Positions 17,543 through 26,288 of a DNA stretch of 64,000 nucleotides are shown here, piece after piece. The stretch spans positions 5,628-69,627 of the forward strand of contig CAYWQH010000007.1 of the NCBI GenBank assembly GCA_964460855.1, given 5' to 3'. Position 1 is the stretch's first letter; each line of letters opens with the position of its first letter. The notes under the pieces are model-generated. The model saw only the letters and a program-made list of their open reading frames with translations, had not been told where the DNA came from and made no database searches. The translations under genes were made by a program, and so were the position numbers. This DNA comes from an uncultured Candidatus Saccharibacteria bacterium (GTDB lineage Bacteria; Patescibacteriota; Saccharimonadia; Saccharimonadales; UBA10212).

Positions 17543-18613
17543 ATGGCTAAAAAGCTGTCTAAAAAGCTTAAAAAAATTCGCGCTGACCGGTTTTCCAGGA
17601 CCCGGCTGTTAGTATTTGCCGGCATTTTCGCCATTATCGGTTCTATACTTTTAATCCGCAGTTTCGCATCTGGATTTTCGGCCGCCATAGAACCCGAAAA
17701 CGGCACAGTTACATCCCCGGCAGTTGTCGGCAGCGACGCCAATGCCTCGGGCGGTAAATACGTCCAGTTTGGCGGCACCGTTGCCACCGGCAGCGACGTT
17801 ACCTTGCCGGCCACCGCCGCTTTTTACTATCCCTGGTTCCCAGAAACCTGGGTAGTTAATGGCGCGCATGTATCTTATACGCCCACGCTCGGTTACTATG
17901 ACTCTTCTACCCAAAGCGTGGTAGACAGCCATATCCAGGCTTTGAATTACGCCAAAATTAAGGTCGGCATAGCTTCTTGGTGGGGTAGCGGCACGCATAG
18001 CGAAAACACCCGCATACCTCTGCTAATGAATCGTACGGCGGCTTTAGGTTCGCCGGTTAAATGGGCTTTGTACTACGAAAAAGAAGGCCAGGCTGACCCT
18101 ACGGTTGCCGAAATACAGTCGGACCTGGATTATATAACGGCCAATTATGCCAGCAACCCCAGCTACGCCCACGTCGGGGGCAAACCGGTGCTGTTCGTTT
18201 ATAACGCTTCGGCCAACGACAATACCTGCGCGATTACCGACAAGTGGAACCAGGCCAATACCGGTAAAAATTTCTACATAGTACTTAAAGTGTTTACCGG
18301 CTATAAAACCTGTGCCAACCAGCCGTCTTCCTGGCACCAATATGGTCCGGCTACGGCATTTTCTGACCAAAGGCCATATTCGTATACTGTCAGCCCCGGT
18401 TTTTGGCGGGCCGACGAAGCAGCGCCGCGGCTGGCCCGCGACCCGACTACATTCCAGCAAAACGTCAACGCCATGAAAGCCTCGGGTGCCACCTGGCAGC
18501 TGATTACAACCTTTAACGAGTGGGGGGAAGGTACCGCCACCGAGTCAGCTACGGATTGGTCTACAGCCAGCGGCTTCGGCACTTACCTGGATATCCTTCA
18601 TAACAGCCTATGA
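17543..18613 (+). CDS. Secreted GH99-like (endo-alpha-mannosidase-like) glycoside hydrolase
   Basis: Basic N-region plus a hydrophobic helix (signal peptide/anchor). The motif series FYYPWF, GYYDSS, ASWWG, KPVLFVYN and ITTFNEWGEGTATE parallels GH99 family landmarks. Start is ATG 17543 (the track gives GTG 17537). Confidence 0.6.
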   Translation: MAKKLSKKLKKIRADRFSRTRLLVFAGIFAIIGSILLIRSFASGFSAAIEPENGTVTSPAVVGSDANASGGKYVQFGGTVATGSDVTLPATAAFYYPWFPETWVVNGAHVSYTPTLGYYDSSTQSVVDSHIQALNYAKIKVGIASWWGSGTHSENTRIPLLMNRTAALGSPVKWALYYEKEGQADPTVAEIQSDLDYITANYASNPSYAHVGGKPVLFVYNASANDNTCAITDKWNQANTGKNFYIVLKVFTGYKTCANQPSSWHQYGPATAFSDQRPYSYTVSPGFWRADEAAPRLARDPTTFQQNVNAMKASGATWQLITTFNEWGEGTATESATDWSTASGFGTYLDILHNSL

Positions 18614-20751
18614 AATTAATATCAGCAACAAATAAAAAATGGCTGGGCATAAGCGCGCTATCAGCAGTTATGCTGGTTGGCTTAGCCGTTGCTGCATACC
18701 AACACGAGTATAAAAACTCGCCTAAAGCTTACGCTGCTACGCCCAGCTCTACTACACCCTGTGTTGGTAATCCCGCCCCGGCCAAATGGAACCACGTAAT
18801 TGTATTGATGTTCGAAAATAAAACTTACGCCCAGGTTATCGGCAGTTCGGTCGCGTCAACCGCGCCGTTTATTAACGGCCTGGCAACCAAGTGCGGCACG
18901 GTTTATAGCGGCACTACCGGTACGGCTCCAAAAAACAACTGGCACGACGCCAACTTTAAAGTCAACGGCGCGACCGATGGCAACTATAACAGCAAACCCA
19001 GCTATGCCACCTTAACCAGCGGCGTGTCGCCCAGCGTCCATGGTTTGAAAGACGATACTTATGGCACCCAAACGGCCGTTGAGAACATTTATGACGAAAT
19101 AAATAAAGCCGGCAAAACCGCTAAAAACTATTACGAAGGATCGGCCAGCGCCACGCCTTGCGCCAGTTCTAACTTTAGCGGTGCCTACCACGACCCGATC
19201 CGATATTTTTCCGATCTGAGCGCCGCCTATTGCAATGCCCACGACGTGCCGATAAGTACCTTCATGACCGACGTTAATAACGGTACCTTACCGAACTTCT
19301 CATTTATATTGCCAACCAATAGTTCCAACATGCACGACAATTCTATTTCGTCGGGCGATACCTGGGCTAAGAACTTCTTAACGCCGTTGCTGGACAGCGC
19401 CCAGTATAAATCTGGCGACACGGCAATTTATTTCTTATGGGACGAAGACACGCCGACGCCAAACGTGCTGCTGGCCCCGTCAGTGGCTCCCGGCTCTAAA
19501 GTTCCGGTGCCAGCAGGCAACCCCATTGGCCATATAGCCGCCACCCGGAGCTGGGCTGAGATGCTGGGCTTACCTTTTTGGGGTGACTTGTCGCAGGCGC
19601 CGAGCTTACTGAGCTTCTTTAACGGCTGCGGTACAAGCTGCACGCCGCCGCCGCCCGACAACCCGCCAACTGTTAGTATTACCGCGCCCGCCGCCGGTAC
19701 CACCTTAACTACCAGCCCGGTGACCGTTTCGGCTAATGCCGCCGACGACCATGGGGTGGTTAAAGTTGAGTTTTATTCTGGCACTACGCTTCTGAATACG
19801 GATACGGCCGCGCCATTCAGTTTTAGCTGGGATGTCAGCAAGCTTTCGGGCAGCCAATCGCTAACGGCCAAAGCTTATGATACTGCCAACCAGATAACTA
19901 CATCGGCGGCTGTAACAGTAACGGTATCTATACCGCCCAGCTGCAGCGTACCTACAACTTTGGGCGTGGTCACCCAAACTGTCAGCGTACCTGCCGGCAG
20001 TACTTACCATGTCTGGAGCCGGATTATGGCGCCCGATACTACCAATAATTCATACTATCTGCAGATAGACGGCGGCTGCCCGATATTGGTTGGCGATTCT
20101 ACGAGTATTCCGGCCAATGCCTGGACGTGGCTGGATTACCAGGGCGGGTCTACTACTACGCATACCAGCGCCACGTTAACCGCCGGCAACCATACTTTAA
20201 CGATGATCGGCCATGAAGCTGGTGTTAAGCTCGACCGGGTTTTGCTGCTGTCTGATACCTGCGTGCCAAGCGGTAATGGCCAAAACTGTTCTGATTCAAC
20301 CCCGCCTACCGTCCAAATTACATCGCCTACCGCCAGCCAAACAGTAAGCGGCAGCGTAAATATAGCCGCTACAGTGGCAGATAATTCCGGCGGCAGCGGC
20401 TTACAAAAAGTCGAATACCTCATAGATAACGGTTTGCTGGCAACCCAAACCACCGGGCCATTCCAGACCGCCTGGAATACCGCCTTAACCGCTGACGGCA
20501 GCCATGCCGTAAACGTCAGGGCGACGGATATCGCCGGGAATGTCAGCACAGGCACAGTAACAGTTACGGTAGCCAACAATACGGCCGGAATAGTGGGCGA
20601 CTTAAATTCGGACGGCCATGTGAACATCTTTGACCTGTCATTATTGCTAAGCAAATGGGGGTCGCCAACTCCGGGTAGCAGCGACCTTAATAACGATGGC
20701 AAAGTCGACCTCACCGATCTGTCATTATTACTAAGCCACTTTGGCGTCTAA
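18610..20751 (+). CDS. Secreted phosphoesterase-family protein (phospholipase C / acid phosphatase type) with Ig-like domains and a C-terminal dockerin-type module
   Basis: ATGA overlap with the upstream gene and a signal peptide. WNHVIVLMFENKTYAQVIG resembles the phosphoesterase family N-terminal motif. Two Ig-like segments (PPTVSITAP.., PPTVQITSP..) flank a jelly-roll-like insert. Confidence 0.65.
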   Translation: MKLISATNKKWLGISALSAVMLVGLAVAAYQHEYKNSPKAYAATPSSTTPCVGNPAPAKWNHVIVLMFENKTYAQVIGSSVASTAPFINGLATKCGTVYSGTTGTAPKNNWHDANFKVNGATDGNYNSKPSYATLTSGVSPSVHGLKDDTYGTQTAVENIYDEINKAGKTAKNYYEGSASATPCASSNFSGAYHDPIRYFSDLSAAYCNAHDVPISTFMTDVNNGTLPNFSFILPTNSSNMHDNSISSGDTWAKNFLTPLLDSAQYKSGDTAIYFLWDEDTPTPNVLLAPSVAPGSKVPVPAGNPIGHIAATRSWAEMLGLPFWGDLSQAPSLLSFFNGCGTSCTPPPPDNPPTVSITAPAAGTTLTTSPVTVSANAADDHGVVKVEFYSGTTLLNTDTAAPFSFSWDVSKLSGSQSLTAKAYDTANQITTSAAVTVTVSIPPSCSVPTTLGVVTQTVSVPAGSTYHVWSRIMAPDTTNNSYYLQIDGGCPILVGDSTSIPANAWTWLDYQGGSTTTHTSATLTAGNHTLTMIGHEAGVKLDRVLLLSDTCVPSGNGQNCSDSTPPTVQITSPTASQTVSGSVNIAATVADNSGGSGLQKVEYLIDNGLLATQTTGPFQTAWNTALTADGSHAVNVRATDIAGNVSTGTVTVTVANNTAGIVGDLNSDGHVNIFDLSLLLSKWGSPTPGSSDLNNDGKVDLTDLSLLLSHFGV
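20596..20748 (+). other. Dockerin-type duplicated Ca-binding segment
   Basis: GDLNSDGHVNIFDLSLLLSKWG..SDLNNDGKVDLTDLSLLLSHFG: two DxNxDGxVxxxD EF-hand-like loops, each followed by a helix. Confidence 0.7.
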
Positions 20752-20877: not shown

Positions 20878-22314
20878 GTGAAAATTACCGGTACTAAGCA
20901 GAAAAAAACTTCTAAATCCAGCAGTTTTAAAATCGGCAAATTTTCTACAATGAATCTACTGGTTTTAGTATTAGTTTTCGCTGCTGCAGGCGGTTATTTT
21001 ATCCACCGCAGCTATGCGGCTACTAACTTTTACGTATCTACCACGGGCAATGACAGCAATGCCTGTTCACAGGCGGCCCCTTGCTTAACTTTTAACCGGG
21101 CGTATGCCGTCGCCTCGGCCGGCGACACGGTTATAGTCCAGCCCGGTAGTTATCCCAGCCAAACCGTCAGCGGCACTAAACCCAGTTGCTGCGTAATATT
21201 TGACTTGCAAAATTCGGCGACGGTCTCCGGTATTACGGTTCATTCCAACAATGTCGAGTTCCGAAATGGCACAATCAGCGATTATGGCTGGAACGGTACA
21301 GCCACCAATCCTATTCCAAGCAACGTCACTTTCAGAAACATTACTGCCCAAAGCGCTTTTTTCAATGCCGGTACTAATCTTTCAATAATTGGCGGCAGTA
21401 TCGGCAACTATGTTGCCTCTTCCGGTTTAGCCAGCGCCGTTACAATCGAGGGAACTAGTAACCCGCTAACCAATGTATTGTTCGATGGCGTGGATTTCCA
21501 CGATATTTCCCATGCCGTATCCACGGACCACTTTGAAGGTCTCCGGGTGGAAGTAGGCGTCAGCAATTTAACTGTCCGTAATTCTAAATTCCGTAATATC
21601 TTAGTCAATACGGCCGTAATATTTATAACTAATGTGCTGACCGATCCCGGCGATCCGCATGACATTACATTTGAAAATAACTGGTTTGGCGATCCGGTTT
21701 CCGGGGCCGGCGGTGGCGCGTTCTTTGATATCAGTACCCAAAACCCGGTTATCCAGACCTGTACTAATCTTAAATTTCGCTATAATAGTTTCGTAAGCGA
21801 AGGGGTGAGTCTGGCTTGCGCTAGCGCGTCGGGCACTCAATTTGTAGGCAATACCGGTCCATCTCCGGCAGGAACTTCCGCGCATTGTCCGACTTTAAGC
21901 GGCGGAATTATATATAGCCACAATGTCTTTACCGACCAAACTTGCGGCGCGACGGATAAACATTCTGCTGCCTTAAATTATGTAAATTCGGCGACTACGG
22001 CGCTGGATTTACACCTTACGGCCGGTTCGGCGGCTATTGATGCCGGCGATCCCGGGGATTTCCCAGCCAAAGATATTGACGGCCAAAACCGCCCGGCCGG
22101 GGCCGGGCCGGATGCCGGCGCCGATGAATTCGGGGCGGCTACCGGGCCTAAAGTCGGAGACCTTAACGGCGATGGCAGCGTAGACATCATCGACCTGTCG
22201 ATATTACTTAGCCACTTCGGGGGTGCCGGCACGCCGTCTACCGGAGACTTAAACAGCGATAATACGGTGAATATTACCGACCTATCGATTTTGCTGAGCC
22301 ATTACGGGACTTAA
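20878..22314 (+). CDS. Secreted right-handed beta-helix (pectate-lyase-fold / DUF1565-like) protein with C-terminal dockerin-type module
   Basis: K-rich N-region plus a hydrophobic helix. NFYVSTTGNDSNACSQAAPCLTFNRAYAVASAGDTVIVQPGSY is the typical beta-helix N-cap pattern, followed by repeated short N/G/V-rich coils. GTG start; an alternative ATG lies at 20950. Confidence 0.6.
   Translation: MKITGTKQKKTSKSSSFKIGKFSTMNLLVLVLVFAAAGGYFIHRSYAATNFYVSTTGNDSNACSQAAPCLTFNRAYAVASAGDTVIVQPGSYPSQTVSGTKPSCCVIFDLQNSATVSGITVHSNNVEFRNGTISDYGWNGTATNPIPSNVTFRNITAQSAFFNAGTNLSIIGGSIGNYVASSGLASAVTIEGTSNPLTNVLFDGVDFHDISHAVSTDHFEGLRVEVGVSNLTVRNSKFRNILVNTAVIFITNVLTDPGDPHDITFENNWFGDPVSGAGGGAFFDISTQNPVIQTCTNLKFRYNSFVSEGVSLACASASGTQFVGNTGPSPAGTSAHCPTLSGGIIYSHNVFTDQTCGATDKHSAALNYVNSATTALDLHLTAGSAAIDAGDPGDFPAKDIDGQNRPAGAGPDAGADEFGAATGPKVGDLNGDGSVDIIDLSILLSHFGGAGTPSTGDLNSDNTVNITDLSILLSHYGT
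22156..22311 (+). other. Dockerin-type duplicated Ca-binding segment
   Basis: GDLNGDGSVDIIDLSILLSHFGG..GDLNSDNTVNITDLSILLSHYG. It is near-identical in pattern to the module at 20596..20748. Confidence 0.7.
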
Positions 22315-22333: not shown

Positions 22334-22600
22334 ATGAAAGCAGTTATCCTTTATAGGCCTAATAGCGACCACGAGCGGACGGTTTTGGATTACGTGCGCG
22401 ATTATAAGCGGCTACATCCGGATAAAAATATTGATCTGCTAAGCCTCGATACCGTAGATGGCGCCGACAAGGCCAGGTTGTACGACATAACCCAGTATCC
22501 CTCCGTAATGGTTTTAACTAACGACGGCCAGCTTCAAAAGTTTTGGCAAGGGGAGCTGTTTCCGTTATTCAATGAACTAGATTCTTACATGCTGGTTTAG
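22334..22600 (+). CDS. Small conserved hypothetical protein (thioredoxin-fold-like pattern without CxxC)
   Basis: 88-aa ORF with compact spacing. Function unknown. Confidence 0.5.
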   Translation: MKAVILYRPNSDHERTVLDYVRDYKRLHPDKNIDLLSLDTVDGADKARLYDITQYPSVMVLTNDGQLQKFWQGELFPLFNELDSYMLV

Positions 22601-22640
22601 TTGTCATTATTAACAGATTGGGTTATAGTAAATTCAACAA

Positions 22641-22837
22641 TTAGTAGAGGCATTTGAGCGGTTATCAGCCGCGAGCCATAGGAAGAACGGCATTACGCTT
22701 ATTAGAACCTATCGGGGAAGCCCGTTACAGCCGAAATTAAGTAAAGAGCCATCTCTTTTGAATAGCTGGATGGTACCGGTTGCCAAAGCAACCTCCAGCC
22801 AATCGAACGAGGTGGCTTTTGGCTTAGAAGGGAGCAG
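22641..22837 (+). promoter_or_regulatory. T-box riboswitch leader of ileS (Ile AUC specifier, very short Stem I)
   Basis: Four landmarks are present. (1) A K-turn-like base (ggc/gcc stem, bulge auuu, tandem G.A at 22656-57/22673-74) carries a 4-bp stem with the 7-nt loop UUAUCAG (AUC at 22664-22666, followed by a purine). (2) F-box CCGUUA at 22722-22727. (3) T-box core UGGUACCG at 22771-22778. (4) An antiterminator-type fold: A1 gctgg 22765-69/ccagc 22795-99, a bulge containing UGGU, A2 ggttgc 22778-83/gcaacc 22788-93. A competing helix (22782-22795 with 22809-22823) also forms. Confidence 0.8.
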
Positions 22838-25714
22838 GTGGTGAAATTCAAGAAACTGGATAAGAAACCGTACGCCGAGATGGAGCACGAAGTAATAAAT
22901 TATTGGAAAGCCAATAATACTTTCGTGAAATCGGTAGAAAACCGGCCGCCCGAAAACAGCTACGTTTTTTACGACGGACCGCCGTTTATAACCGGGGTGC
23001 CGCATATGGGAACTTTACTTAGCAGCATCGCCAAAGACGTCATACCGCGCTACCACACCATGCGCGGCAAACGGGTAGAACGCGTTTGGGGCTGGGATTG
23101 CCACGGCTTGCCGGCCGAAACTTTTGTAGAGAAACAACTTGGGATCAAAGATAAGCGCGACGTCGCCAAAATCGGCTTGGCCAAATATATTGAAACCTGC
23201 CGGGCAGCCATGATCCAAACCGGGTCGGAATGGGAAGATACCATCGAGCGTATCGGCCGCTGGGTGGATTTTCAGGGCGCTTATAAAACTATGGACAAGC
23301 CTTACATGGAATCAGTCTGGTGGGCCTTTAAACAGCTGTATGACAAGGGCAAGATATATGAAGGCGAAAAAGTACTGCTTTACTGTACGCGCTGCGCTAC
23401 GCCCCTTTCTAAGGCCGAAATCGCTATGGATAACTCGTACGCCGACGTTACCGACCCGTCGGTTTACGTTAAATTAAAAGTAGCCAGCGAAGATTACTAT
23501 TTACTGGCGTGGACGACCACTCCCTGGACATTGCCGGCTAACACTGCCGCCGCCGTCCATCCCGACCTGGAATACACTTTTGTCGAGCATGAAGGCATTA
23601 CTTACGTAGTGGCCAAAGATCTGGTAGAAAAAGTGTTCAGCGATAACCGCGGCAATCCGCTGGAATACAATGTACAAAAAACAGTTCCGGGGCTGGAACT
23701 GGTTGGTAAAAAATACGAGCCGCTGTTTGACAGCCGCGGCGACAATGCCCACCGGGTGTTATCAGCCCCATACGTTACAACCGAAGAAGGTACTGGCATA
23801 GTCCATCTGGCTCCGGCCTACGGCGAAGAAGATTATGAACTGGCCAAAAAAGAAGGCCTGCCGATATACGTAAATATCGATGAGAACGGCTTTTTTAAAG
23901 AAGGCCAATGGCAGGGCACATATGTTTGGGATGCCGACCAGCTAATAGCCGATGCACTTCATCAGCAAGGAAAAGTCTGGCGTATCCAACCCATCCGCCA
24001 CAGTTACCCCCACTGTTACCGCTGCGGCACAAAATTAATGTACCGGGCCCATCCCAGCTGGTTTATGGATATAACCGGCCAGCGCGAGTTAATGCTGGAC
24101 CAGAACGAAAATATATCCTGGTACCCGAAGCATATAAAGCATGGGCGTTTCGAACACACGGTGGCCACCGCTCCAGATTGGAACTTGTCGCGCGACCGGT
24201 TCTGGGCGACGGCCATGCCGGTGTGGCGCGGCGTAAAAGAAGACGGCTCAATAATCACCAAAGTTGTAGGCAGTTATGCCGAGTTAAAAGAGTTATCCGG
24301 GGCCGAATTAGAAGACTACCACCGCCCTTACGTAGACGACGTTACTTTCGAGTACCAGGGCGTGCATATGTCGCGCATAGATAAAGTACTTGATTGCTGG
24401 TTTGAATCCGGCTCGATGCCTTTCGCTCAATTCCACTATCCGTTTGAAAACAAAGAAAAATTCGAAGCCAATTTCCCTGGTGACTTTATCGTCGAATATG
24501 TCGGGCAGGTCAGGGCCTGGTTTTATTACTTGCACGCCGTATCTGTCGGCTTGCAAGGTACCAATAGCTTTAAGCACGTGGTAGTTACCGGCACGCTGGC
24601 CGGCAATGACGGCCGCAAAATGAGCAAATCGCTGGGTAATTTTACCGATCCGATGGTGCTTTTGGACCGCTATAGCGCCGATGCCCTGCGTTTGCTGTTA
24701 ATGAGCTCGCCGGTTATGCACGGCGATGACTTCGCACTAATGGACAAGGATGTGGCTGACATGCAGCGGCGCCTGAATACCTTGCGCTCAACACTGGAAT
24801 TTTTCTTACTATATGCCGAAGCCGATAACTGGGAGGCCCAAGAGGCTGATCTGCAAGTGCCGGACGTCAGTCAGGTGATGGACCGCTGGGTGCTGGCCAG
24901 GCTGTTTGAGGCCCAAAAAGAGGTAGAAACAGCCATGGAAGGCTATGATACTACAGCTGCCACAAAACCCCTGCTGGAATTCATAGAAGACTTATCTAAC
25001 TGGTATGTGCGGCGCAGCCGCAAACGCTTCTGGAAAACCCAAAATGACAGTGACAAGCATGATGCTTACCGCACGTTATACTTCGTACTCATCCATCTAT
25101 CTAAACTAATGGCACCGCTGGCACCTTTTTTGGCCGAAGATATATACCGGACCTTAACGGGCAGGGAATCCGTACACCTGGAAAACTGGCCGGAAAGGGT
25201 AAAACCAGATAATGCTAGCCGGATAATGCTAGAAGAAATGCATAAAGTCAGGGAACAGATAACCGAAGGCTTAGCCCGCCGGGCTGAAGCTAAAATAAAA
25301 GTCCGCCAGCCCTTGGGTCTGGTAAAAATTCCACTGGCAGTTAGCGATAGCGCGCTTTATTCGGAGGTCATAGCTGAAGAGTTAAACGTCAAAACCGTAG
25401 ACTGGATAGAGTCCGGAGAACAGTTACAGCTAGACACTACCGTTACTGACGAGCTAAAAGCCGAGGGCTTAATGCGCGATATTGTGCGACAGGTACAAAG
25501 TACCCGCAAGGCAGCCGGACTTAACGTCGAAGACCGGATATTGCTGGGGCTGGAAACTGGCGATCCGGAGTTGCAATCGGCCATCAATCGCTTCGAATCG
25601 GAAATTGACGCCGAAACACTGGCTACCGGCCGGTTAGCTGGCGATGGTGACAGCTACCAAAACGAAGTCCAAATCGAAAACAAACCTCTAAAAATCCAAA
25701 TCAAAAAGGTTTAA
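22838..25714 (+). CDS. ileS: Isoleucyl-tRNA synthetase
   Basis: 958 aa. HIGH-type motif PHMGTLLS, KMSKS present (GRKMSKSLGN), an editing-domain insertion, and WDCHGLP. GTG start at 22838 or 22841 after GGGAG. Confidence 0.97.
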   Translation: MVKFKKLDKKPYAEMEHEVINYWKANNTFVKSVENRPPENSYVFYDGPPFITGVPHMGTLLSSIAKDVIPRYHTMRGKRVERVWGWDCHGLPAETFVEKQLGIKDKRDVAKIGLAKYIETCRAAMIQTGSEWEDTIERIGRWVDFQGAYKTMDKPYMESVWWAFKQLYDKGKIYEGEKVLLYCTRCATPLSKAEIAMDNSYADVTDPSVYVKLKVASEDYYLLAWTTTPWTLPANTAAAVHPDLEYTFVEHEGITYVVAKDLVEKVFSDNRGNPLEYNVQKTVPGLELVGKKYEPLFDSRGDNAHRVLSAPYVTTEEGTGIVHLAPAYGEEDYELAKKEGLPIYVNIDENGFFKEGQWQGTYVWDADQLIADALHQQGKVWRIQPIRHSYPHCYRCGTKLMYRAHPSWFMDITGQRELMLDQNENISWYPKHIKHGRFEHTVATAPDWNLSRDRFWATAMPVWRGVKEDGSIITKVVGSYAELKELSGAELEDYHRPYVDDVTFEYQGVHMSRIDKVLDCWFESGSMPFAQFHYPFENKEKFEANFPGDFIVEYVGQVRAWFYYLHAVSVGLQGTNSFKHVVVTGTLAGNDGRKMSKSLGNFTDPMVLLDRYSADALRLLLMSSPVMHGDDFALMDKDVADMQRRLNTLRSTLEFFLLYAEADNWEAQEADLQVPDVSQVMDRWVLARLFEAQKEVETAMEGYDTTAATKPLLEFIEDLSNWYVRRSRKRFWKTQNDSDKHDAYRTLYFVLIHLSKLMAPLAPFLAEDIYRTLTGRESVHLENWPERVKPDNASRIMLEEMHKVREQITEGLARRAEAKIKVRQPLGLVKIPLAVSDSALYSEVIAEELNVKTVDWIESGEQLQLDTTVTDELKAEGLMRDIVRQVQSTRKAAGLNVEDRILLGLETGDPELQSAINRFESEIDAETLATGRLAGDGDSYQNEVQIENKPLKIQIKKV

Positions 25715-25733
25715 CTATTTAGGTTTCGTACAT

Positions 25734-25868
25734 GGATGCACCGCTAGGAAGTAGCGAATTTTGAATGAAGCGTATTACACATACGCTGAGTGAAAAATTT
25801 TAGCGTACTGACAACGCGGGGCGCCATGAGTCGCCAAAGCGGCCGGCTTTGCCGGACGATTGGGCGAC
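25734..25868 (+). ncRNA. Copy A of the unassigned four-member structured RNA element family
   Basis: Reads GGAUGCACCGCUAGGA..GAAUGA-AGCGUAU-UACAC-AUACGCU-GAGUGA..GACAACGCGGGGCGCC (25734-25825), then a long hairpin GUCGCC..CCGGC-UUU-GCCGG..GGCGAC (25830-25868). By hand alignment, 81 of 92 core positions are identical to copy B, while the 3' hairpin stems are completely re-written but still pair. Confidence 0.55.
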
Positions 25869-25961
25869 GCTACGAAAGCTAAAAGCTTAACACCTCTGGA
25901 CAGGTGAGAGGATAAGTGGTAACATCTGTTGGTAACTTTTTAACTGTGTAAGGCCAAAAAG

Positions 25962-26288
25962 ATGAAAAAAGCAGTCATCGCCACCGGCGGTAAGCAATAT
26001 CTTGTTTCAGAAGGCGAAGAGCTGGAAATTGAACTTTTGCCCGAAGGGACCAAGCCGGAGTTCCAGCCCTTGCTGGTAATTGACGGCGAAAAAATCAGTG
26101 TTGGCAAACCAATGGTTGAAAATATTCTCGTTAAAGCTTCTGTAGTCGAAGCCGAGGTCAAAGCTGATAAGGTAGTAGCCATCCGCTATAAGGCTAAAAA
26201 GCGGGTCCGTAAAGTCCGCGGCCATCGCCAGCGCCACATGAAAATCAAAATTTCCTCTATCGCCAGCAAAACCGCCGCCAAAAAATAG
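25962..26288 (+). CDS. rplU: 50S ribosomal protein L21
   Basis: 108 aa. MKKAVIATGGKQYLVSEGEEL..KVVAIRYKAKKRVRKVRGHRQ is typical of L21. No rpmA follows it. Confidence 0.95.
   Translation: MKKAVIATGGKQYLVSEGEELEIELLPEGTKPEFQPLLVIDGEKISVGKPMVENILVKASVVEAEVKADKVVAIRYKAKKRVRKVRGHRQRHMKIKISSIASKTAAKK

Follow-up and report, generated by a model that had tools for sequence, protein, structure and literature searches.

Upstream of a 958-codon ORF (22838–25714) in the 64,000-nt stretch of DNA analysed here (the window) lies a gap of 237 nt, bounded on its other side by a small ORF (22334–22600). The question raised by this locus is whether the gap holds a T-box regulator of the downstream gene and, if so, by what expression platform such a leader would act. 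An earlier note on this DNA had described an Ile-specific T-box with an ultrashort Stem I, a mutually exclusive helix near the ribosome binding site, and a platform that it called unclear. Every motif named there lies at the coordinates it had been given (Table 1); the reading of the platform, as set out below, changes.

The ileS locus and its T-box leader

The protein encoded downstream of the gap is an isoleucyl-tRNA synthetase (TIGR00392 equivalog, 828.9 bits; cutoff, 621.4), which, together with the AUC specifier of the leader, bears out the assignment of an Ile-specific T-box upstream of ileS. The enzyme is of type 2; its best solved relatives, 8c8v and 1ile, score 650–694 bits, whereas 1ffy, a type-1 enzyme, reaches 335 bits. 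In an N-terminal alignment the proteins of relatives open with MKFK, suggesting that translation starts at the second of the two GTG codons, 6 nt downstream of the Shine-Dalgarno (SD) sequence. Transcription from a promoter-like site ahead of the leader would begin a few bases upstream of the leader itself; promoter-like sites as such showed no enrichment over shuffles. An antisense ORF (22709–23005, minus strand) overlies the conserved structured leader and was judged to be a chance ORF. No tRNA genes were found in the 64-kb window, and no tRNA-Ile gene in any of the fetched ileS loci.

Table 1. Features of the ileS leader and flanking sequence, in window coordinates
Feature	Position	Strand	Remarks
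Promoter-like site, TTGTCA-17 nt-TATAGT	22601–22629	+	10/12 consensus matches; consensus match only
T-box leader	22644–22826	+	Upstream of confirmed ileS
Ultrashort Stem I	22649–22677	+	Basal helix, GA motif, 4-bp stem, 7-nt loop; within R1 match
Stem I basal helix	GGC 22649–51 / GCC 22675–77	+	3 bp
Stem I upper stem	GCGG 22658–61 / CCGC 22669–72	+	4 bp
Stem I terminal loop, UUAUCAG	22662–68	+	7 nt
Specifier AUC (Ile) and conserved purine A	22664–22667	+	AUC 22664–66, A 22667; gene is ileS
Stem II	22678–22712	+	AUAGG 22678–82 / CCUAU 22708–12; distal GGC 22689–91 / GCU 22697–99
Stem IIA (CGGG/CCCG) and F-box CCGUUA (22722–27)	22713–22733	+	RNAalifold, R1 alignment; possible IIB partner inside
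RAG linker motif, AAG	22739–22741	+	5' of Stem III; nearly invariant, alignments A1 and A4
Stem III, AAAGAG / CUCUUU, loop CCAU	22743–22758	+	ON-state partner of the shared strand
Nested helix, 5' arm	22747–22763	+	A22747 and G22748 of Stem III 5' strand, Stem III loop, 3' strand, linker
A1/bulge/A2 discriminator	22765–22799	+	Covariation; bulge invariant
A1	GCUGGA 22765–70 / UCCAGC 22794–99	+	99.8% of cells paired
T-box bulge, UGGUACC	22771–77	+	7 nt, invariant
T-box sequence, UGGUACCG	22771–78	+	Position as in the earlier note
A2	GGUUGC 22778–83 / GCAACC 22788–93	+	95.8% of cells paired
Lineage-specific alternative helix	22782–95 with 22809–23	+	Loop 13 nt; non-random in window
Nested helix, 3' arm, AAUCGAACGAGGUGGCU	22801–22817	+	Pairs with 22747–63; encloses A1/bulge/A2
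Weak U-tract, UUUUGGCUU	22817–22825	+	U22817 may also pair with A22747, closing the 3' arm
Shine-Dalgarno, GGGAG	22830–22834	+	In no conserved helix
ileS, type-2 IleRS	22841–25714	+	Probable start GTG 22841; a further in-frame GTG at 22838

The best IleRS relatives are all MAGs of Saccharibacteria/Saccharimonadales, which agrees with the CPR organism supposed in the earlier note. Identity to these relatives does not exceed 63%, and a metagenome scan for nearer relatives returned none above 63% IleRS identity. Identity this low makes the source organism a rather isolated representative of the Saccharibacteria within the CPR group.

Scanned against Rfam, the window yielded no match at or above a family's gathering score. 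In a permissive local search of 451 nt, RF00230 nonetheless aligned to the leader from end to end, at 21.9 bits (E 0.0068) against a gathering score of 93; 78 distal Stem I positions of the model correspond to 7 nt in the window, and the absence of the distal Stem I from the leader accounts for the low score. The earlier note had proposed to drop the T-box assignment should RF00230 return no significant score. The score does fall below the gathering level, while the alignment spans the full length of the model; since RF00230 models a long Stem I, it makes a poor ground for refutation here, and comparative data were used in its place.

Protein-guided searches yielded 160 ileS loci, nearly all labelled Saccharibacteria or Saccharimonadales, and 107 T-box instances were catalogued within them. 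Two covariance models were built from these relatives with the window left out: R1 for the decoding domain, and R2 for the discriminator and the nested helix described below. R1 matches the window at 22648–22745 with 75.0 bits (E 7.9e-17) and R2 at 22734–22830 with 49.3 bits (E 4.6e-9), the latter score being comparable to those of divergent members of the family, with every modelled pair standard. Over the 64 kb there was no other significant match to either model (next best E 1.9). Stems I, II, IIA and III, A1, and A2 all show covariation among the related leaders. Judged by sequence and covariation, the leader is almost certainly a T-box upstream of ileS, well beyond what chance would produce.

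The same leader is widespread among relatives, as a survey of the kind proposed in the earlier note makes clear. The R1 decoding domain lies upstream of ileS in 71 of the 80 species-representative Saccharibacteria genomes, and the R2 platform was recovered in 64/80 species-representative loci and 60/80 metagenome loci. The T-box is present in cultivable Nanosynbacter relatives as well (L057 and L059). Weaker R1 matches in MAGs labelled Moraniibacteriota, Paceibacterota, or Patescibacteria group hint that the ultrashort ileS T-box may extend to CPR lineages outside Saccharibacteria.

Within the decoding domain, a 4-bp stem capped by a 7-nt loop of the form NNAUCNN is kept in 97 of 107 related leaders; the earlier note was right about the ultrashort Stem I with its specifier in the terminal loop. 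The commonest loop variants are CUAUCAA (33), UUAUCAG (23, the form of the window), and CUAUCAC (19), and AUCA is invariant among the 54 relatives of alignment A3. The 4-bp stem varies in a compensatory manner (GCGG/CCGC, GUGG/CCAC, GCAG/CUGC, GUAG/CUAC, AUGG/CCAU), as does the basal helix (GGC/GCC, UCC/GGA, AAC/GUU, GAC/GUC); RNAalifold pairs Stem I columns 11–14 with 22–25. At the level of sequence, the stem is flanked by a K-turn-like GA motif (UGA 22655–57 and GA 22673–74), with the same flanks in relatives. A long Stem I, with an AG bulge and a distal loop forming the elbow platform, is absent from the window leader. Stem II retains conserved S-turn-type motifs, GAAGAA and AUUAGAAC (family form AGUAGAAC), and RNAalifold finds strong covariation in both of its segments (e.g., columns 55/98, with CG 28 and UA 23). 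A candidate IIB pseudoknot gave pairing runs of 3.5, as compared with 2.9 in shuffles, and comprises only 2 bp in the window.

The discriminator is similarly well preserved: A1 and A2 carry double changes in 9 of 11 pairs. A22762 and A22764, which follow Stem III, are invariant and fit the "Stem III-AA" motif. By complementarity, the UGGU of the bulge would base-pair with an ACCA end; bacterial tRNA-Ile generally carries A73. The role of the RAG linker motif upstream of Stem III has been described previously (PMC11297988). Two departures are seen in the window: a one-base insertion in the linker between Stem III and A1, and a G-C pair at the bottom of A2, where the family usually has G-U. These departures, along with the low RF00230 score, the weak IIB pseudoknot, and the weak U-tract, might be expected of a decaying relic, that is, a T-box-derived sequence from which regulation has been lost. 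The helices and invariant motifs are all intact, however, the leave-one-out matches remain strong (E 8e-17 and 5e-9), and the bottom pair of A2 is variable throughout the family (GU 34, AU 17, UA 16, GC 3); decay is accordingly a very remote prospect.

Stem III and the nested helix

The complement of the strand downstream of A1 lies in Stem III (its loop and 3' strand) and in the linker that follows, rather than in the 3' sides of A1 and A2. In the window, the resulting nested helix has a duplex energy of −25.9 kcal/mol (z = −7.2 against shuffles), and the unconstrained minimum-free-energy fold, at −44.1 kcal/mol, combines it with intact A1 and A2; the ON fold, in which Stem III stands beside A1/A2, reaches −24.8 kcal/mol. 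The nested fold of the window comprises approximately 26 pairs, A1 and A2 included, and is nearly perfect, with the extended helix stopping at 22826.

Comparative evidence for this helix is extensive. It was predicted by RNAalifold, unguided, from the family alignment. As the lower helix of the nested structure, it is paired in 86% of cells, with double changes in 12 of 13 pairs; for the nested structure as a whole, 91.5% of cells are paired, as compared with 71.2% in shuffles (none of 500 shuffles was as good) and at most 56.8% in slid controls. At columns 33/107, a position of the Stem III loop pairs with the downstream arm as AU in 32 leaders, UA in 20, GC in 4, and CG in 3; since loop positions are unpaired in the ON fold, this covariation counts for the nested helix specifically. 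When 106 leaders were sorted by type, 86 were nested (mean z = −5.4), 10 canonical-looking, and 10 ambiguous. Stem III, for its part, shows double changes in 5 of 6 pairs, with 80.5% of cells paired. That Stem III and the nested helix both covary implies that both alternatives are under selection, with the 3' strand of Stem III in common. The conserved alternative helix of this family excludes Stem III and keeps A1 and A2 folded inside it.

The earlier note had overlooked this stronger conserved helix and had named a different competitor, listed in Table 1 as the lineage-specific alternative helix. That helix is indeed present in the window, where it exceeds chance (duplex −19.3 kcal/mol, z = −3.9 against shuffles) and, as observed there, has no U-tract after it. 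It does not prove to be conserved: across 72 relatives 50.6% of its cells are paired, no more than in shuffles (51.4%), of which 390/500 do at least as well. We see only a slim chance that it acts as the functional competitor in the lineage of the window, with the 3' sides of A2 and A1 captured by the downstream strand in the canonical manner, either on its own or as a kinetic intermediate on the way to the nested helix. Its pairing is local, and the short loop might permit quick nucleation; canonical-type platforms also occur in about 10 family members. Yet its conservation does not rise above that of shuffles, it leaves the SD uncovered and lacks a following U-tract, and folds forced to contain it (−25.8 to −31.2 kcal/mol) fall short of the nested fold in stability by 13–18 kcal/mol.

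Level of control and proposed mechanism

Once the conserved nested helix and the U-tract behind it are seen, the platform no longer appears unclear, as the earlier note had left it: in the relatives it has the design of an intrinsic terminator and not that of an SD sequestrator. At least 6 U within 8 nt directly follow the helix in 101 of 107 leaders, as compared with 11.7% of random segments, and a run of at least 5 U occurs in 92/107 leaders (5.6% of random segments). By a folding-independent best-tail statistic, the family median tail score is 4.60, a value reached by approximately 1% of random segments. Two relatives (L044 and L108) are without a U-tail. In the window, UUUUGGCUU directly follows the G+C-rich core of the nested helix (stem end GGC 22814–16) and contains UUUU, with 5 U in 8 nt; its tail score of 3.34 is the fourth lowest of 107. 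This score nonetheless lies in the top 5% of 45-nt segments from the organism's own genome, which is richer in GC (51.9% vs. 45.8%). A generic scan for hairpins followed by U over 20 kb of the window found 32 sites where 30.7 were expected, and hence no enrichment; such a scan cannot detect a helix with a structured insert of 50 nt and says nothing of how terminators are used. Because the U-tract of the window is weak, termination there is argued from homology; support for the nested-terminator mechanism, good across the family, is moderate in the window itself.

A translational T-box acting in the actinobacterial manner, with the ribosome binding site of ileS hidden or exposed and the long helix serving as a sequestrator or steric block, is the first alternative to be weighed. 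All ultrashort-Stem-I ileS T-boxes known so far regulate translation (PMC1262725; PMC7583486), the extended helix ends just 3 nt from the SD, and the weak tail of the window, like the two leaders devoid of one, would fit such a reading. However, the predicted accessibility of the SD in the window is the same in either state (mean P(unpaired) of 0.54 in the ON fold vs. 0.53 in the OFF fold), and throughout the family the SD lies farther downstream, past the U-tract that so regularly follows the helix. In about 35 loci, moreover, the platform and ileS have a small unrelated gene between them, which argues that the platform is independent of the ileS SD. By these fold predictions the SD of the window is not sequestered by the switch, and we consider translational control unlikely.

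A second alternative is that in this GC-richer lineage the nested hairpin works by some other route, such as RNase III cleavage, an effect on mRNA stability, a pause signal, or Rho entry. The great length and near perfection of the helix, as well as its weak U-tract, could be read in this way, and RNase III cleaves a T-box leader in S. aureus (PMC7913692). Against this, the window aligns to a family model whose members have strong U-tracts, with all pairs standard; its tail stands out within its own genome; and there is no positive evidence for an RNase III, stability, pause, or Rho route. Such a function has a correspondingly slight likelihood.

Control of ileS by transcription attenuation, through a tRNA-Ile-sensing T-box in which Stem III is opposed to the base of a terminator, is the reading that we hold to be probable. 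In this scheme, the 4-bp Stem I would display AUC and the adjacent A in its 7-nt loop to tRNA-Ile, and the RAG linker, Stem III, A1, the UGGUACC bulge, and A2 would jointly bind the uncharged 3'-NCCA end. Without uncharged tRNA, the downstream arm would invade Stem III from its A1-proximal side, producing a long helix that coaxially extends the intact A1/bulge/A2 hairpin and is followed by the U-tract, whereupon RNA polymerase would terminate. When uncharged tRNA is bound, its duplex with the bulge would serve as the docking site for Stem III and the RAG linker, and Stem III would withstand invasion, allowing read-through into ileS. Binding of tRNA-Ile by the leader, the direction of the switch, and actual termination are what we infer in this scheme, termination being the least secure of the three in the window.

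Structural work on other T-boxes is consistent with a role of this kind for Stem III. Stem III stacks coaxially on A1 and, with its flanking purines, is indispensable for binding of the tRNA 3' end (PMC7583486; PMC5570125); when a mimic of charged tRNA is bound, the linker loses its docking and Stem III departs, with NCCA still paired to the bulge (PMC12647780). In the saccharibacterial family, this charge-sensitive docking element is the very one that the downstream arm can capture, and it is on this basis that a Stem III-capture switch is proposed. Transcriptional T-boxes are described as generally needing a long Stem I for fast capture of tRNA (PMC7583486); the saccharibacterial ileS family is without the long Stem I said to be needed, an observation that counts against attenuation.

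Relation to known T-boxes and implications

The leader shares much with the actinobacterial ileS T-box of M. tuberculosis and M. smegmatis (Seliverstov 2005; Sherwood 2015): the regulated gene and AUC specifier; a truncated Stem I that lacks a distal platform for binding the tRNA elbow; and the succession of an S-turn-type Stem II, Stem IIA, RAG linker, Stem III, and A1/UGGNACC/A2. In the actinobacterial system, an SD-sequestering hairpin competes with an antisequestrator, "instead of terminators" (PMC1262725). In the window, by contrast, the SD is predicted to be free in both folds, and the alternative helix, with a U-tract behind it, has Stem III and not A1/A2 as its competitor; the host phylum, Saccharibacteria (CPR), differs as well.

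With canonical transcriptional T-boxes (RF00230; e.g., Bacillus subtilis tyrS and glyQS), the leader shares the discriminator core, the bulge, the order of domains, and, as proposed here, tRNA-dependent read-through of an intrinsic terminator. The canonical Stem I is long, with an AG bulge and a distal loop resting on the tRNA elbow, whereas here that distal portion is reduced to a few nucleotides. The canonical features missing from the leader also include a conserved terminator formed from the 3' strands of A1 and A2 and a score at the Rfam threshold. In the canonical switch, the 3' strands of A1/A2 become the 5' strand of the terminator while Stem III persists (PMC7583486; PMC5570125); here, A1/A2 would persist while Stem III is dismantled.

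One subgroup of relatives (L153–L160, comprising L153, L154, L156, L158, and L160) carries a canonical terminator with U7 on the same T-box. These leaders have the ultrashort Stem I, decoding domain, and discriminator seen in the window. Their downstream arm, AAUUGGAA, repeats the 5' strand of A1 and pairs with its 3' strand, in the classical topology, and U7 follows; the window, in contrast, belongs to the nested majority. In the open-access literature that was searched, we found no paper linking a T-box with Saccharibacteria, Patescibacteria, or TM7, and no description of a nested-terminator T-box that works by Stem III capture.

T-boxes serve as a model of RNA–RNA sensing, and the logic usually taught for them opposes a terminator to an antiterminator, with the 3' strands of A1 and A2 in common. 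Whether Saccharibacteria possess a distinct class of T-box is, in our estimation, evenly balanced. Such a class would read aminoacylation by strand exchange at Stem III, keep A1/bulge/A2 folded in both states, form its terminator by capture of the Stem III 3' strand, and act transcriptionally without contact to the tRNA elbow. If true, the use of Stem III as the shared strand would be a second natural solution to T-box switching, and it would agree with single-molecule data in which docking of Stem III and the linker, not NCCA pairing, is sensitive to charge (PMC12647780). It would likewise provide a counter-example to the requirement of transcriptional T-boxes for a long Stem I and elbow contact (PMC7583486). 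The nearest ultrashort T-boxes of type-2 ileS genes occur in Actinobacteria, and this raises the possibility that the ileS T-box was acquired from actinobacterial hosts and then rewired.

Actinobacteria are the known hosts of cultivated Saccharibacteria, and CPR bacteria are generally viewed as genome-reduced epibionts that rely on their hosts for amino acids. For the biology of these organisms, the leader would represent a native, compact regulator through which a genome-reduced epibiont senses the charging of its tRNA-Ile. Its occurrence in cultivable Nanosynbacter relatives opens the ileS T-box to experiment. A 2024 review of the phylum, in which riboswitches appear only as prospective tools, proposes riboswitch control as a step toward the inducible expression systems that Saccharibacteria still lack; the ileS T-box may become a genetic tool of this kind.

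Switch topologies and leader variants

Among the ileS loci of relatives (L-numbers), a subgroup of the ultrashort-Stem-I T-box family (L153, L154, L156, L158, and L160) carries a canonical terminator, in which the 3′ strand of A1 pairs with AAUUGGAA, followed by U7. Because this subgroup is built on the same ultrashort ileS T-box, two switch topologies coexist within one family.

Stem III is wholly absent from six leaders (L003, L013, L014, L069, L089, and L108). In these leaders, the AAGCNCC linker region and a GGGG(A/U) segment located downstream form a short helix, with a U-run after it; this arrangement seems to substitute for Stem III in all six. Two family members, L044 and L108, lack a U-tail 3′ of the discriminator (the A1/bulge/A2 region that binds the tRNA 3′ end). 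In L044, a GCCGGAG segment adjoins the SD and could potentially pair with AUCCGGC farther upstream. Both members may represent translational or degenerate variants.

Matches in other CPR groups

The R1 decoding-domain model, a covariance model built from relatives with the window left out, returned weaker matches (38–62 bits) in L015, L032, L040, L054, and L055, all MAGs labelled Moraniibacteriota, Paceibacterota, or Patescibacteria group. Three of these loci (L032, L040, and L054) have GGUGGUACC in place of GAUGGUACC. The range of the ultrashort ileS T-box in CPR may extend past Saccharibacteria.

Other features of the window

One of the two dockerin proteins also contains phosphoesterase and Big_7 domains; such large dockerin-bearing proteins are unexpected equipment for a Saccharibacteria-like genome. 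The ORF that follows the non-coding stretch downstream of ileS starts MKKAVI, as does the ORF after ileS in L089, and the stretch itself may be a structured leader. Rfam gave no family at gathering score in this stretch or anywhere else in the window (1–64000), and no tRNA gene was found across the same 64 kb.

Positions of features in the window and in related ileS loci
Sequence	Feature	Position	Strand
Window	Large protein, C-terminal type I dockerin domain, just upstream of T-box/ileS	18610–20751	+
Window	Large protein, C-terminal type I dockerin domain, just upstream of T-box/ileS	20878–22314	+
Window	Non-coding, 250 nt, partly G+C-rich, between ileS and next ORF	25715–25961	+
Window	Next ORF (MKKAVI)	25962–26288	
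Window	Single ORF, 4534 codons	27284–40888	+
L153, L154, L156, L158, L160	Canonical terminator	about 1390–1490 in each	
L044	No U-tail	about 2870–2995	
L108	No U-tail	about 1257–1400	

Genes between the T-box and ileS

In L006, L017, L018, L045, L052, L056, L064, L094, L118, L136, and about 25 further loci, the T-box terminator is separated from ileS by an inserted gene, small and highly variable, that frequently overlaps the ileS start. Examples include NUDIX, cupin, GNAT, GDSL hydrolase, DUF4145, T5orf172, inositol monophosphatase, and Trp-repressor-like genes, as well as an ORF without a Pfam match; an IleRS-GNAT fusion model is present in NCBIfam. The T-box/ileS interval looks like an insertion hot spot that would place cargo genes under tRNA-Ile control.
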